DNA from: Nitrosarchaeum sp.
GTDB lineage: Archaea; Thermoproteota; Nitrososphaeria; Nitrososphaerales; Nitrosopumilaceae
Direction of reading: 5' to 3'
DNA length: 64,000 bases
Assembly: GCA_965223865.1 (NCBI GenBank)
Contig: OZ245020.1
Location: 544,001 to 608,000 of the forward strand
Part shown: positions 1,941 through 31,926 of the stretch, in pieces
Numbering within the stretch: the stretch's first letter is position 1
Layout of the letters: the number at the start of each line of letters is the position of its first letter
Position numbers and translations under genes: made by a program
Notes under the pieces: model-generated
Database searches by the model: none
The model's input: the letters and a program-made list of their open reading frames with translations, nothing else
Told to the model about the DNA's origin: nothing

Positions 1941-2357
1941 TTGAATATTGCTGTAGTGGTTTCGGAATTTAATGAAGAAGTGACGTCTAGAATGCTTTTA
2001 GTAGCTCAAGAAAAAGCAAAAAAAATGAAATTAAAAATCAAACATACATGTAATGTTCCAGGTGCTTATGATATGCCTATAATTGTGGATGCGTTATTAC
2101 AAAAAAAGTATATTGACGGTGTAATCACATTAGGTGCAATCATTAAAGGACAAACAAAACACGATGAAGTAATTGCAAATTCAACTGCTCAGGCATTAAC
2201 TAATCTTTCCTTAAAATATCAAAAACCTGTCTCATTAGGAATTACTGGACCTGGAATGCAAGAAAGACATGCATATGCTAGAATACGTCCGGTAGCTGAA
2301 AGAGCAGTTGAGGCTATTGTAAAGATTTCAGATGAATTAGATCGGATTCAGAAATGA
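1941..2357 (+). CDS. ribH: 6,7-dimethyl-8-ribityllumazine synthase
   Basis: IAVVVSEFN, VPGAYDMP, LGAIIKGQTKHD motifs; TTG start. Confidence 0.95.
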   Translation: MNIAVVVSEFNEEVTSRMLLVAQEKAKKMKLKIKHTCNVPGAYDMPIIVDALLQKKYIDGVITLGAIIKGQTKHDEVIANSTAQALTNLSLKYQKPVSLGITGPGMQERHAYARIRPVAERAVEAIVKISDELDRIQK

Positions 2358-3103
2358 TTCAGATAAGCATTTTGAAAATTAATGGATATGGACCTTGGAC
2401 CCTTACTCTAGGAAGTGATAGAGAGCATGAACTACAAATGCTTCAGGCATCATTATACAAGGAGATTCAGAGATTATTTTCAGAAAATAATTGCCTAGTT
2501 TTCTTAAATAGATCTGATGAATTTTTTGTAGTCTCAAATGGTCTAGGATTAGATGAACACATAAAAATCCAAAAATCACTAGAAAAATCTTTTGATATTC
2601 GACTTTCAATATCTATTGGATATGGAGATTCCCCATTTGCAGCTAATCTAAAAGCTTATGATGGAAAAAAAAATGAAATCATTCTCAGTAAAGAACACAA
2701 TATTTTTGGTTATCTCACCAAATCTCCACTATCAGTTTCTATAATGCATCTTGATGTAGATGATCTTACATCCCAAAGAAAAACAAACTCTCCATATGAG
2801 ATTTCCTCAATAATCTTTAGTCTTTATTCAAAAATGTCAAAATATTTTATAGAAAAAAATTCTTTGACATTTTACGTGGGTGGAGATAATTTTATGGTTG
2901 TTGCAAGTGAGGAGGGAAAAAATTCAGTTAAGGAGTTTATTGAATCTGCAAAAAATGAAGATCAAATAATTTTGAATTGTGGAATTGGAAATGCTAAAAC
3001 TGCCAGAGAAGCTGTTAAACTTGCCACAAAATCTCTTGATACGATAAGAGAAATTAGAGATTCAGGTAAAGAAAAGCCTGATGTTTATGAATTATCATGT
3101 TGA
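2354..3103 (+). CDS. gch3: GTP cyclohydrolase III (archaeal)
   Basis: GYGPWTLTLGSDREHELQ, HLDVDD and YVGGDN motifs; located in the rib operon. Confidence 0.9.
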   Translation: MIQISILKINGYGPWTLTLGSDREHELQMLQASLYKEIQRLFSENNCLVFLNRSDEFFVVSNGLGLDEHIKIQKSLEKSFDIRLSISIGYGDSPFAANLKAYDGKKNEIILSKEHNIFGYLTKSPLSVSIMHLDVDDLTSQRKTNSPYEISSIIFSLYSKMSKYFIEKNSLTFYVGGDNFMVVASEEGKNSVKEFIESAKNEDQIILNCGIGNAKTAREAVKLATKSLDTIREIRDSGKEKPDVYELSC

Positions 3104-4287
3104 TAAAAAATGCAAGTATTCTGTTAGGAAAAGAATTAGACTTTATTTCAAATACTAACATAAAGATTCAAAATAATAGATTCAAACGAATTCAACCAAA
3201 AATTAGAGCTAGTTCCAAAGAAGAAATTATTGATGTTGAAGGTTTATTGATAATTCCTGGCTTTGTAAATTGTCATACTCATATTGGTGATTCCATTGGA
3301 AAAGATGTTACACTAAATACATCGGTGAATAAAAAAATTCATCCTGTTTTTGGAGCAAAATCAAAAATTCTCAATAAAACTAACAAAGAAATTCTTGGAA
3401 GCTTTATGAAAAATTCATGTAATTCTATGTTAACAAAAGGAATTACTACTTTTGTTGATTTTAGAGAGGGAGGCATAGATGGTGTATTACTTCTTAAAGA
3501 AATACTGAAAAAATCTCCAATACGCTCAATAGTTCTTGGTAGACTAGATTATTACCAAAATCCCAATGAAATACGAAAAAATATCTCCTTGCCTAAATCA
3601 AAGCTACAAAATCTTGAAGAATTACTAAAAAAATGTGATGGCCTTGGAATCAGCGGAGCCAATGAAAACAGTACATCCGTGTTAAATCAGTATTCAAAAA
3701 CATCAAAAATTAGAGCAATTCATGCCTCTGAAACTAAACAAAGCGTTTTAGCGTCAAAGAAAATGACTCGAAAATCAGAAACCATACGTGCCTTGACCCT
3801 AAAACCTCATTTTCTAATACACATGACTTATGCTTCTTTAGGAGATCTACATGCCGCATCAAAGAGAACTAGAGGCATAGTAATTTGTCCTAGAGCAAAT
3901 GCCTCTCTAGCAGAAGGAATTCCAGATATTGAATTGATGAAAAAAGCTGGTTGTACTTTAGCATTGGGCACAGACAACGTTATGGTTAATTCTCCTGATA
4001 TGTTCAGAGAAATGGATTATCTGTGGAAAGCAACTATGGCAATTCACAAAAAAAGAATCAATCCAAAAGAAATTCTAAAAATGGCTACAGTAAATGGTGG
4101 AAAACTTTTGAGAAAAGATATTGGTGTAATAGAAAATGGAAAACTTGCAGATGGTATATTTATTGAAAAACATTCACTAGACTTGGAACCTATGCATAAT
4201 CCTCATGCCTCAATTGTACATAGAGCTTCACAATCAACAATTCGTGCAGTAATGATAGGAGGCAAAATAGTTCATGGACAAATCTAA
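3097..4287 (+). CDS. Metal-dependent amidohydrolase (deaminase-like, COG0402 type) within the rib operon
   Basis: PGFVNCHTH (HxH), HASE (HxxE), LIH, LGTDN, GKLAD motifs; overlaps both neighbours. Confidence 0.85.
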   Translation: MLIKNASILLGKELDFISNTNIKIQNNRFKRIQPKIRASSKEEIIDVEGLLIIPGFVNCHTHIGDSIGKDVTLNTSVNKKIHPVFGAKSKILNKTNKEILGSFMKNSCNSMLTKGITTFVDFREGGIDGVLLLKEILKKSPIRSIVLGRLDYYQNPNEIRKNISLPKSKLQNLEELLKKCDGLGISGANENSTSVLNQYSKTSKIRAIHASETKQSVLASKKMTRKSETIRALTLKPHFLIHMTYASLGDLHAASKRTRGIVICPRANASLAEGIPDIELMKKAGCTLALGTDNVMVNSPDMFREMDYLWKATMAIHKKRINPKEILKMATVNGGKLLRKDIGVIENGKLADGIFIEKHSLDLEPMHNPHASIVHRASQSTIRAVMIGGKIVHGQI

Positions 4288-4930
4288 CTTGCACATTATT
4301 CTTAGCGCAGCCATTTCTTTAGATGGAAAAATTGCAACCTATGCTGGTGATTCAAAATTATCTTCAAAAAAAGATATTATTAGATTACACAAACTTCGTT
4401 CAAAAGTTGATGCAATTCTAATTGGAAAAAATACTGTAATTAAAGACAATCCATTACTTACTGTAAGATTTTCAAAAGGAAAAAATCCAGTTCGCGTTGT
4501 ACTTGATTCTCAGGGAAAAATTTCTGAAAAATCCAAAATCCTTCAGACATCAAATAAAATACCTACAATAATTGCTGTTTCAAAAAAAATCAGTCCAGAA
4601 AATTTAAAAAATTTAAAAAAATTTCCTGTTGATATTATTGTTTCTGGAAAAAAAACAATCAACATAAAATCTCTAATTAAAGAACTTGAAAAAAGAGGAA
4701 TTCAAACCATTCTTGTAGAAGGTGGTGGAACAATTAATTGGCAATTTATCAAAGATAATTTGTTTAATGAAATATTTCTAACTATATCTCCCTTTATTAT
4801 CGGAGGAGTTAATGCAATATCTTTGGTTCAAGGAAAAGGATTTAAAAAAATTATAAACTCACCTAAACTCAAATTAGATTCCATAAAGAGACTTGAAAAT
4901 TACCTTGTTTTACATTATATCAAAGTGTAA
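4274..4930 (+). CDS. arfC: 2,5-diamino-6-ribosylamino-pyrimidinone 5'-phosphate reductase (RibD C-terminal domain only)
   Basis: SLDGKIA, DAILIGKNTV, DNPLLTVR, LVEGGG motifs; 218 aa with no deaminase domain. Confidence 0.9.
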   Translation: MDKSNLHIILSAAISLDGKIATYAGDSKLSSKKDIIRLHKLRSKVDAILIGKNTVIKDNPLLTVRFSKGKNPVRVVLDSQGKISEKSKILQTSNKIPTIIAVSKKISPENLKNLKKFPVDIIVSGKKTINIKSLIKELEKRGIQTILVEGGGTINWQFIKDNLFNEIFLTISPFIIGGVNAISLVQGKGFKKIINSPKLKLDSIKRLENYLVLHYIKV

Positions 4931-4966: not shown

Positions 4967-5239
4967 TTGGTAGTAAAAAAGAAATCTCTAACAAAGAAAA
5001 AAGTTGCAGCAAAAAGAAAAACTGTATCTAAGGTTACAAGAAAAAAAATGGTAACAAGTCAAAAACAAAATCAACTAAATCTAGCTTCTAACAAAAAAGC
5101 ATTTGGAGGTTATGCAATTAGTTTTGCAGGACGAAAAGAAACTATTGAACAAGTTTTTGGTAAGAAACCTATTGCACCAAGTGAAATGACCAAAAAGATC
5201 TGGACATTTGTTAAAGAAAACAGTCTTTCAAACCGTTAA
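4967..5239 (+). CDS. Small Lys-rich protein with a SWIB/MDM2-like C-terminal segment
   Basis: Lys/Arg-rich N-terminus; FGKKPIAPSEMTKKIWTFVKENSL resembles the SWIB core; TATA-like element about 30 nt upstream. Confidence 0.65.
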   Translation: MVVKKKSLTKKKVAAKRKTVSKVTRKKMVTSQKQNQLNLASNKKAFGGYAISFAGRKETIEQVFGKKPIAPSEMTKKIWTFVKENSLSNR

Positions 5240-5331: not shown

Positions 5332-5889
5332 ATGTCAACTGCATCATTACGAAAGGATCATGATCTTATTGAAAAGGTCATTAAAGCTATGGAGTCCACA
5401 ATTGAATTATTAACTAATAATAAACAAATTCCGGAATCTATTTTATTACCTGTAATCGATTTTTCAAAAAACTTTACTGATGTATGCCATCATAGCAAAG
5501 AAGAGAACTCATTGTTTCCTGCTCTTGAACAAGCAGGAATGCCAAGAAACATGGGGCCTATTGCTATGATGTTAATGGATCATGAACGCTCAAGAGAAAT
5601 TGGAAAACATATGGAAGAATCAGCAAGAGAATATCTTTCTTCTGGAAATTCTGAAAATCTGATTAATGATATGAAACAATATGTTGAACATATTATAGAA
5701 CATTTGTGGAAAGAAAACAATAGATTATTTATGATGGCCGAAGCTCGTTTACAATACGTTTCTGAAAAAGTCGATAAAGAACTTAATGAAATTGAACAAG
5801 CTAAACTCAAGGAGACTGGAAAAACCCGAGAGCATTATGAAAAACTAGTTGAAGACTTAACAAGAGATGTTTCTGAACAAGGATCCTAA
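5332..5889 (+). CDS. Hemerythrin/HHE cation-binding domain protein
   Basis: DH...HHSKEE..LFP...DH...HLWKE metal-ligand pattern. Confidence 0.9.
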   Translation: MSTASLRKDHDLIEKVIKAMESTIELLTNNKQIPESILLPVIDFSKNFTDVCHHSKEENSLFPALEQAGMPRNMGPIAMMLMDHERSREIGKHMEESAREYLSSGNSENLINDMKQYVEHIIEHLWKENNRLFMMAEARLQYVSEKVDKELNEIEQAKLKETGKTREHYEKLVEDLTRDVSEQGS

Positions 5890-30162: not shown

Positions 30163-31926
30163 GTGAATTCAACCCTTGCAGATTCTATTTCCTTATTAAA
30201 TTCAGTCGCAATTGGAGATAAGAAAGCCGATATAATTTTGCAAAATTGTTCTTTAATGTCAGTGTATACTAGAGAAATAATTCCTAAAACTCAGATTGCA
30301 ATAATAAAGGATAGAATTGCATATGTTGGCCCAGATGCAAGCCATACAATTGGACCAAAAACAATCATTATTGATGTAAAAGGAAAATTTGTTGCGCCAG
30401 GATTTGCAGATCCTCATGTGCATATAGATCAATTTGTATTACCATCAGAACTAGCAAAAAAATCTCTTTTATGTGGGGTCACAACTCTTTTTTCTGATCC
30501 AATTGACGTTGTTAGCGTAACTGGATACAAGGGATTTCAGGAATTTTTAAAACTTGGCGAAGATCTACCAATTAGAATTTTTCAAGTGGTTCCAGGTGGT
30601 CTTCCTGTAGATGGAAAATTTAGCAACAGCAAAAAGTTGTCGTTATCCCAAGAAAAAACTGCCATAAAACATCCACATGTTCTAGGATTAGGAGAAGTTT
30701 TTTCATGGACTAAGGTTACTCTTCGTGATCCAAAGACCATGAAATCATTGTCTTCTATGTTGGAAGCAGATTGCATAATCAATGGACATACAGCAGGTGC
30801 AAGTGAAAAAAAATTAAATGCATATGTCTCTTCTGGAATTTTATCTTGTCATGAACCAATCAATTTTGATCAAGTACTAGAAAGATTACGTTTAGGAATG
30901 TGGATAATGATCAGAGAGGGTTCTATTAGACGTGACTTGGGAGAAATTATTCCACGAGTTATGTCACATGGAACTTATCGTAGTCAACTGATGTTTTGTT
31001 CTGACGGACTTGATCCTCTGGATATAACAAAATATGGCCACATAGATCATTGCATAAGAGAATCAATTACTCTCGGATTAGAACCCATAGATGCAATTAC
31101 AATGGCTTCCAAAAACTGCTTTGATTATTATAACATGGGAAAAAATTTAGGAGGTATTGCTCCAGGCAAGTTAGCTGATATTCTTATTTTTGATGACTTA
31201 AAATCGATTAAACCTTCCAAAGTATTCGTAGGCGGAAAATTAGTTGTTTCAAACGGCCGAATTGTTACTACGATTAAGAAAAAATCAATTTCTCCATGGA
31301 TAAAAAATACTGTTAAACTAAAAAAATTCGCTCCAAGTGACTTTATTATTAAATCAAAAATGGACAAAGTTGATGTAAATACCATCTATATGCAAACTGA
31401 AATCATAACAAAATTGGGAGATGCAAACCTAAACGTTGAGAAAGGAGACGTTTTGACTTCTCGTGAAAAAGATGTTTGGAAGGTTGCAGCCTTTGATCGA
31501 ATTTATGGTACAAAAAAACACTCAATTGGATTTCTTGAAAACTTTGGAGCAGACATTGGCGCCTTTGCCTCAACTTGGAGCTTTCATGAAAATGATTTGA
31601 TCATAATTGGTTCAGATAATTCAGATATGGCATATGCTGCAAATACTCTCATAAAAAATCAAGGTGGATTAGTAGTTGTTAAATCTGGTAAGGTTCAAGC
31701 ATCTCTTCCTTTACAATTTGCAGGAATCATATCAACTGATTCATTTGAAAAAGTGTCTTCTAATTTTAAGAAAATTAATGACTCTATAGTTGATTCTGGT
31801 TGCAAATTCGAGAGACCTCATCTTATTCCATTATTCTTGCCATTTTTAGCTCTACCTTCTGTAAGAATTCTCTCGAATGGAATCGTTGATGTGAAAAATA
31901 GATCCTATGTCAATCCGATCAAGTAA
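30163..31926 (+). CDS. ade: Adenine deaminase family amidohydrolase
   Basis: PGFADPHVH, GHT, CHE, IREGS, GGIAPGKLAD, LPLQFAGIIS motifs. Confidence 0.88.
   Translation: MNSTLADSISLLNSVAIGDKKADIILQNCSLMSVYTREIIPKTQIAIIKDRIAYVGPDASHTIGPKTIIIDVKGKFVAPGFADPHVHIDQFVLPSELAKKSLLCGVTTLFSDPIDVVSVTGYKGFQEFLKLGEDLPIRIFQVVPGGLPVDGKFSNSKKLSLSQEKTAIKHPHVLGLGEVFSWTKVTLRDPKTMKSLSSMLEADCIINGHTAGASEKKLNAYVSSGILSCHEPINFDQVLERLRLGMWIMIREGSIRRDLGEIIPRVMSHGTYRSQLMFCSDGLDPLDITKYGHIDHCIRESITLGLEPIDAITMASKNCFDYYNMGKNLGGIAPGKLADILIFDDLKSIKPSKVFVGGKLVVSNGRIVTTIKKKSISPWIKNTVKLKKFAPSDFIIKSKMDKVDVNTIYMQTEIITKLGDANLNVEKGDVLTSREKDVWKVAAFDRIYGTKKHSIGFLENFGADIGAFASTWSFHENDLIIIGSDNSDMAYAANTLIKNQGGLVVVKSGKVQASLPLQFAGIISTDSFEKVSSNFKKINDSIVDSGCKFERPHLIPLFLPFLALPSVRILSNGIVDVKNRSYVNPIK

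Follow-up and report, generated by a model that had tools for sequence, protein, structure and literature searches.

An amidohydrolase encoded in the riboflavin operon of a Nitrosopumilaceae archaeon is a predicted deaminase of riboflavin and F420 synthesis

RESULTS

The riboflavin operon and the amh gene

Here we describe an amidohydrolase gene, amh, which lies in the riboflavin operon of a Nitrosopumilaceae genome and whose product is predicted to deaminate the product of the reductase ArfC in the archaeal synthesis of riboflavin and F420. The gene was studied in a window of 64,000 nucleotides (nt) of contig OZ245020.1 (GC ~31%; the closest proteins are named Nitrosarchaeum and Nitrosopumilus), where six genes on the + strand, ribE, ribB, ribH, arfA, amh, and arfC, follow one another between positions 608 and 4930. 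The features of the locus are:

608-1192, + strand: ribE, bacterial-type riboflavin synthase (PF00677, E 3.4e-48; NF006767, 227.6 bits, cut-off 155)
1203-1238, no strand assigned: two abutting TTAC-N10-GTAA sites in the ribE-ribB spacer, one exact and one with 1 mismatch
1273-1938, + strand: ribB (PF00926, E 1.3e-57; TIGR00506, 215 bits, cut-off 177)
1941-2357, + strand: ribH, lumazine synthase (PF00885, E 2.1e-33; TIGR00114, 127.8 bits, cut-off 84.6)
2354-3103, + strand: arfA, GTP cyclohydrolase III (PF05165, E 1.8e-47, 162 bits, cut-off 21.3)
3097-4287, + strand: amh, NF005552-family amidohydrolase, predicted 2,5-diamino-6-(5-phosphoribitylamino)pyrimidin-4(3H)-one deaminase (motifs, profiles, and fold)
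4274-4930, + strand: arfC, stand-alone pyrimidine reductase consisting of the RibD C-terminal domain only (PF01872, E 2.4e-52; TIGR01508, 204.9 bits, cut-off 186.45)

The amh open reading frame begins with an ATG and encodes 396 amino acids (aa). Its start codon at 3097 and the arfA stop codon at 3101-3103 give an overlap of 7 nt, and the arfC ATG at 4274 and the amh stop codon at 4285-4287 give another of 14 nt; ribH and arfA overlap by 4 nt. The original prediction, made from the sequence of the stretch, had described an amidohydrolase gene overlapping both gch3 (arfA) and the reductase gene, a RibD homolog with only the reductase domain, and an operon with no creatininase-family gene, and all of this was borne out: the arfC product matches PF01872 only and passes the cut-off of TIGR01508, the archaeal reductase model, and the single creatininase-family gene of the genome lies elsewhere, at G000:C1:163777-164424 (L001:1462-2184), where it abuts a purU-like formyltetrahydrofolate deformylase gene.

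Family, catalytic motifs, and predicted fold of Amh

Amh matches the NF005552 model (PRK07213, "chlorohydrolase") at 314.4 bits, above the curated cut-off of 294 and far above its second-best model (122.6 bits), and the match is near full length, residues 1-387 corresponding to profile positions 2-377 of 382. When the whole genome was searched in six frames with this profile, amh was the one match found (314.5 bits). Among Pfam models Amh matches only PF01979 (Amidohydro_1, E 3.2e-35) and PF07969; neither PF00383, the domain of the RibD and Rib2 deaminases, nor the creatininase domain PF02633 is matched, and the ArfB model NF033501 is not among the NCBIfam matches listed. A search of 1.84 billion cluster representatives returned 176 proteins at E ≤ 1e-30. 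The family has no solved structure, and the best sequence match in the PDB (E 2.9e-18) covers part of the length.

The HxH, HxxE, and D ligands of COG0402 deaminases, which had been noted in Amh from its sequence, were confirmed in an alignment of 49 diverse members. H60-x-H62, H209-A-S-E212, H242, and D293 constitute the HxH/HxxE/His/Asp set of the cog0402 deaminases and occupy its positions (HxH after strand 1, HxxE after strand 5, His after strand 6, and Asp after strand 8), and these motifs align with those of solved deaminases. Residues H60, H62, D65, G115, E212, H242, C264, D293, and R376 are invariant among the 49 members, and H209 is nearly so.

The AlphaFold2 (AF2) model of Amh (pLDDT 96.1, pTM 0.94) is a (beta/alpha)8 barrel with a composite beta-sandwich which, in Foldseek comparisons with the PDB, is placed near solved cog0402 members, with probability 1.00, TMq 0.70-0.88, and identity of 14-22% among the matches listed. 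The top structural matches listed are deaminases of 5'-methylthioadenosine (MTA)/adenosine, isocytosine/8-oxoguanine, and guanine, the atrazine/triazine dechlorinases, and TM0936; lower matches include the iminohydrolase HutF and the imidazolonepropionase HutI, and no deformylase is among those listed. The cog0402 deaminases (guanine, 8-oxoguanine/isocytosine, MTA/S-adenosylhomocysteine (SAH), TM0936, and AtzA/TrzN) have the same fold (TMq 0.80-0.88) and the same HxH, HxxE, His, and Asp residues as Amh, but at 430-490 aa they are longer than the members of the Amh family (~350-415 aa), to which they are 14-22% identical. Moreover, the Amh family has HxHxxD, CPR, and GTDN where the solved, aligned MTA deaminases have HxHxxM, CPE, and GTDG.

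Other genes of the amidohydrolase superfamily are present in the genome: a 587-aa adenine-deaminase-like protein in the window (30163-31926, + strand; 380 bits, below the NCBIfam cut-off of 472.5), urease alpha, and a dihydropyrimidinase/dihydroorotase-like protein.

A short form distinguished from longer paralogs

Beyond the catalytic set, the family carries a signature made up of D65, K88, E124, R266, N294, and R376. In what we call the short form the catalytic residues are always kept, D65, K88, E124, and N294 occur in every aligned row, and R266 and R376 in almost every one. The five longer paralogs compared, which belong to the same phylum (open frames of 403-457 aa), have M/F, gap/T, gap/G, G/gap, V/I/T, and S/A/K at the positions of D65, K88, E124, N294, R266, and R376, respectively. 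The two forms were told apart by the length of the open frame, the start of the profile match, and the residues of the signature, a protein being taken as short form if it had an open frame of at most ~430 aa, a profile match starting in the first 9 positions, or a checked signature; these criteria were set after a first survey of the matches had been seen. A FastTree tree of 41 rows, rooted for drawing only, is consistent with one short-form group set against the long paralogs.

Gene neighborhoods of the short form

The order ribB-ribH-arfA-amh-arfC was present in 26/26 Nitrosopumilaceae loci. A search with a 16-row alignment gave 80 further loci, all from Nitrosopumilaceae and close kin, of which 66 have the full ribE-ribB-ribH-arfA-amh-arfC order, 13 have shorter versions of it, and one has no detected arfA, and in every one of the 80 arfC lies directly 3' of amh. 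The Nitrosopumilaceae loci come from close kin and amount to little more than one observation.

For other Thermoproteota families, neighborhoods of ~17 kb were fetched around 29 short-form matches and four longer paralogs. Rib genes are adjacent in 21 of the 29 short-form loci, which come from eight families (f2, f36, f18, f33, f26, f30, f3, and f17), and are absent from all five longer paralog loci (four seen in ~17 kb, one to ±1.5 kb only). Taking the loci outside Nitrosopumilaceae together, rib or F420 (cofG/cofH) genes lie beside amh in 21 of 34. The form of the linkage varies, being ribB-ribC-ribH-arfA-amh in f18 and either amh-arfC or arfC-amh in f2, f36, f33, and f26; the arfA-amh adjacency recurs in f18 and f30. 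At L141 a single rib cluster reads arfC-arfA-ribB-ribC-ribH-amh and includes a convergent creatininase-family gene. At three loci of f2 and f36 (L117, L119, and L120), two radical-SAM genes come after amh-arfC, and the second of them encodes a CofH/MqnC C-terminal domain; at L122 (f33) a CofH equivalog (508.8 bits) stands convergent beside arfC-amh. The substrate of CofH is 5-amino-6-ribitylaminouracil, which the reaction proposed for Amh would yield after dephosphorylation; thus, at these loci amh is flanked by the reductase and by a consumer of the deaminated product. The original prediction had looked to synteny with gch3 and arfC as a check, and linkage to rib genes is indeed found in all Nitrosopumilaceae loci seen and in those 21 of 29 loci from other families.

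The type of riboflavin synthase differs among the clusters. Nitrosopumilaceae have the bacterial-type RibE (PF00677; 608-1192 in the window), and in Thermoprotei-type clusters an archaeal RibC (TIGR01506, 193-213 bits) lies between ribB and ribH (L121:6382-6846 and L141:6978-7445).

Co-occurrence with ArfC and ArfA

The distribution of the family was followed in one set of 201 Thermoproteota genomes, including that of the window, in every search; matches below the listing limit were left unclassified. Short-form amh was recognized in 78/201 genomes, in 72 by listed frame, profile start, or signature, and in six (all f10) by a single match with an E-value in the range of its kin, from which the short form is inferred. 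A stand-alone ArfC-type reductase is present in 78/78 of these genomes. ArfA (PF05165) was found in 71/201 genomes, all of them within the 78. RibA (PF00925) was found in 0/201, and so was a bifunctional RibD (TIGR00326) above cut-off; the reductase part of TIGR00326 was matched in 86/201 genomes. In f3 (2/8 genomes) and f22 (4/7) ArfA and amh occur in precisely the same genomes, and this match of ArfA with amh is the most independent piece of the co-occurrence evidence.

Eight genomes have a match to the reductase part and no short-form amh, and five of those matches are weak or fragmentary. Two of the others, both of f11 (G165 and G183), combine an ArfC-type reductase with a cytidine-deaminase-type match of 170-185 aa to the N-terminal part of RibD, and in them this small protein may supply the step in another way. 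In the genome of the window the sole PF00383 protein is a 187-aa ComEB-like dCMP deaminase. Among control genomes, NF005552 matches at E ≤ 1e-50 were found in 4/4 archaeal and 0/10 bacterial ones. One of the archaeal controls is Methanocaldococcus jannaschii, the organism in which ArfB was characterized, which has an ArfB model match and an NF005552 match at this threshold and no PF00383 deaminase.

Creatininase-family genes

The creatininase family (PF02633) was found in 152/201 genomes and in 71/71 of the ArfA-positive ones, including that of the window. In f3 it is confined to the two ArfA-positive genomes, and in one genome (G119) it lies beside arfA, with amh-arfC on another contig. The protein of the window genome scores best on the MftE and creatininase models, and it is likely to be the deformylase of the ArfA product.

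Putative control of the operon by RbkR

The tandem TTAC-N10-GTAA sites at 1203-1238 lie 35 nt before the ribB start and just upstream of a TATA-like TTTATAA. Their sequence agrees with the operator consensus published for thaumarchaeal RbkR, for which two adjacent sites have been described (Rodionova 2017, PMC5397151). An exact site is found ~50 nt upstream of ribB in 55/67 related loci, and two exact sites in 17/67. Over the whole window the number of TTAC-N10-GTAA sites is no higher than chance (39 found, 30.2 expected), so that it is the tandem position 5' of ribB and its conservation which carry weight. Because the sites fit the consensus and recur upstream of ribB, amh is probably part of an RbkR-controlled ribB-ribH-arfA-amh-arfC unit. 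The ribE gene lies upstream of the operator-like sites and may be transcribed separately.

DISCUSSION

Taken together, the sequence comparisons and the modeled fold lead us to predict, with good confidence, that Amh is the deaminase which acts on the product of ArfC in archaeal riboflavin and F420 synthesis. The enzyme would belong to the cog0402 deaminase type of amidohydrolases, with a (beta/alpha)8 barrel and a mononuclear metal center, hydrolyzing the 2-amino group of 2,5-diamino-6-(5-phospho-D-ribitylamino)pyrimidin-4(3H)-one to give 5-amino-6-(5-phospho-D-ribitylamino)uracil and ammonia, and the dephosphorylated product would feed both lumazine synthase, for riboflavin, and CofH/CofG, for the F420 chromophore. 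If Amh works like the solved cog0402 enzymes, water would be activated by a metal bound to H60, H62, H209, and D293, and E212 and H242 would pass the protons. The residues of HxHxxD65, CPR266, and GTDN294, together with K88, E124, and R376, stand next to the catalytic motifs and may bind the ribityl-phosphate substrate. Loss of the 2-amino group from a 2-amino-4-oxopyrimidine ring is also the chemistry of guanine and 8-oxoguanine deaminases. The same reaction as that proposed here is carried out by the N-terminal domain of bacterial RibD and by fungal Rib2 (PF00383), zinc enzymes of the cytidine-deaminase fold to which Amh has no homology and which it would replace. The order of the steps in the proposal, reduction before deamination, is that of the Rib2 type (Rodionova 2017, PMC5397151).

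The original prediction left two roles for the protein, the deaminase step and the deformylase step, and favored the former. The order of the genes, the fold, and the occurrence of amh together with ArfC support that preference, and on sequence and model grounds the deaminase step appears to be a much better fit. If Amh were instead the enzyme that hydrolyzes the formamide in the GTP cyclohydrolase III route, standing in for ArfB on the ArfA product and leaving deamination to something else, the overlap with arfA and the recurrence of the arfA-amh adjacency in f18 and f30 would be readily understood, as would the low score of the genome's only creatininase-family protein on the ArfB model (43.5 bits, cut-off 180). 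We nevertheless regard this as very unlikely, since HxxE and the His of beta6 belong to the deaminase set, the structural matches listed are deaminases, dechlorinases, an iminohydrolase, and an imidazolonepropionase, and M. jannaschii has a true ArfB in addition to its strong NF005552-family match. The occurrence of a creatininase-family gene in every ArfA-positive genome likewise favors the deaminase over the deformylase, and in Sinorhizobium meliloti deformylation of the same substrate has been proven for a creatininase-family enzyme that falls outside the strict ArfB group (PMC9478397). Furthermore, seven amh-positive genomes have no detectable ArfA, three of which (G002, G116, and G087) have no creatininase-family gene either, and a deformylase role would leave deamination with no candidate, because a RibD-type enzyme was found in none of the 201 genomes. 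ArfB and BrbF work one or two steps ahead of the reaction proposed for Amh in this pathway, and are sometimes encoded in the same cluster (L141), but they belong to the creatininase family (PF02633) and differ from Amh (PF01979) in both fold and family.

It could also be supposed that Amh is a general salvage deaminase of nucleosides or bases (MTA/SAH/5'-deoxyadenosine, guanine, or cytosine) that merely rides in the operon, and database names such as "cytosine deaminase" and "chlorohydrolase", the MTA/adenosine deaminases as nearest solved structures, and the interpretation of COG0402 as a cytosine deaminase of creatinine breakdown in sponge Thaumarchaeota (PMC7848895) all point that way. This we consider very unlikely given the low identity to the solved enzymes; it is the longer paralogs that resemble them, and these differ at all six signature positions and have no rib neighbors, whereas the short form tracks ArfC in every genome in which it was recognized and recurs in rib or cofGH clusters. 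The sponge-associated work (PMC7848895) also takes the creatininase family as creatinine amidohydrolase and reads it, together with COG0402, as creatinine catabolism; for the two genes of the window genome this is probably wrong, because amh is the only NF005552-type protein found in that genome and lies inside the rib operon.

Several of our observations count against the deaminase assignment or reduce the force of the evidence for it. Of the seven ArfA-less genomes, five were searched again and gave no ArfA even at E ≤ 1, nor RibB, nor RibA (L117, L118, and L120 from genomes G002, G116, and G028 of the Bathyarchaeia; L119 from G161; L129 from G087), and amh and arfC are present in them. The support that such genomes lend to a deaminase as opposed to a deformylase is indirect; in these five the pathway seems to serve only the precursor of the F420 chromophore. 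Rib genes are missing from the neighborhood in 13 of the 34 loci outside Nitrosopumilaceae, that is, in eight of the 29 within 8 kb (f12, f22, and one f30) and in five of five for which ±1.5 kb was seen (four f10 and one f17), so that f12, f22, and f10 show no linkage at all, although the unlinked loci keep the family signature except for a divergent one of f17. Profile scores alone failed to split orthologs from longer paralogs, both falling at 150-225 bits with the 49-row profile in the 201 genomes, and the form was uncheckable for the six f10 genomes and for several reductase-negative genomes with matches below the listing; kin among the 201 genomes are, moreover, not independent. The creatininase-family protein of the window genome, given its score on the ArfB model, is no ArfB equivalog, and the deformylase step is therefore itself one that we infer. 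Finally, no enzyme assay or mutant of any family member was found in open-access papers or bioRxiv.

The ArfA-less genomes also raise the question of a broader activity. In G002, which is 100% complete, and in G116, amh-arfC precedes two radical-SAM genes, and no ArfA, RibA, creatininase, or RibB was found. A protein that would both deaminate and deformylate, or take on an earlier step of ring chemistry, where neither ArfA nor ArfB is present has no precedent among the structural relatives listed; a missing match is not a missing enzyme, and an unknown cyclohydrolase is the simpler account, which makes this the least probable of the readings considered. There is only a slight chance that in archaea of the G002/G116 type Amh also performs ring-opening or deformylation, so that a compound derived from GTP would become the CofH substrate through Amh and ArfC alone, the sole alternative there being a wholly unknown GTP cyclohydrolase.

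The assignment of Amh as a deaminase has a precedent. Orthologs of the RibD-type deaminase are apparently missing in Archaea, and a candidate archaeal deaminase, "PyrD", was proposed in 2010 by Osterman, Overbeek, and Rodionov from clustering and co-occurrence, as set out by Rodionova et al. (2017, PMC5397151), in whose words it "remains to be tested". PyrD was placed in RbkR regulons, 15 of them in Table 1 of that paper, and MJ0699 and HVO_2483 are listed as PyrD predictions by Pfeiffer et al. (2021, PMC8305020); the passages concerned do not name its protein family. The evidence on which PyrD was proposed, clustering with riboflavin genes on the chromosome and a phyletic distribution shared with them, is of the same type as that found here for amh. 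The NF005552 family matches the genomes of M. jannaschii and Haloferax volcanii at E ≤ 1e-50, matches that are at the level of the genome; the name MJ0699 turned up neither in the homolog searches nor in a cluster look-up of 10 representatives. From these control matches, as distinct from an alignment to MJ0699, the Amh family appears to be the PyrD candidate already published. The original prediction had called the archaeal deaminase poorly defined; a candidate was already in print (PMC5397151), and no assayed enzyme was found. Amh thus appears to be one ordinary representative of a family to which the deamination step had been assigned before, and our result a rediscovery, well supported.

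In the pyrimidine branch of archaeal riboflavin/F420 synthesis, deamination is, a phosphatase apart, the one remaining step with no assayed enzyme found. If the prediction is true, a TIM-barrel amidohydrolase takes the place of the cytidine-deaminase-fold domain of bacteria, fungi, and plants, which would be a clean non-homologous replacement in a universal vitamin pathway. It would also be of value for annotation, as databases name the family "chlorohydrolase", "cytosine deaminase", or "amidohydrolase family protein".

Among the relatives of Amh is a 392-aa protein, 31% identical to it, in the EukProt entry of the glaucophyte alga Cyanophora paradoxa (P0249), which may be a contamination or a real eukaryotic copy. 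Directly downstream of arfC in the window, both on the + strand, lie a lysine-rich open reading frame of 90 aa (4967-5239), which matches a SWIB domain weakly (E 0.0016, under the cut-off), and a gene for a 185-aa hemerythrin-domain protein (5332-5889).

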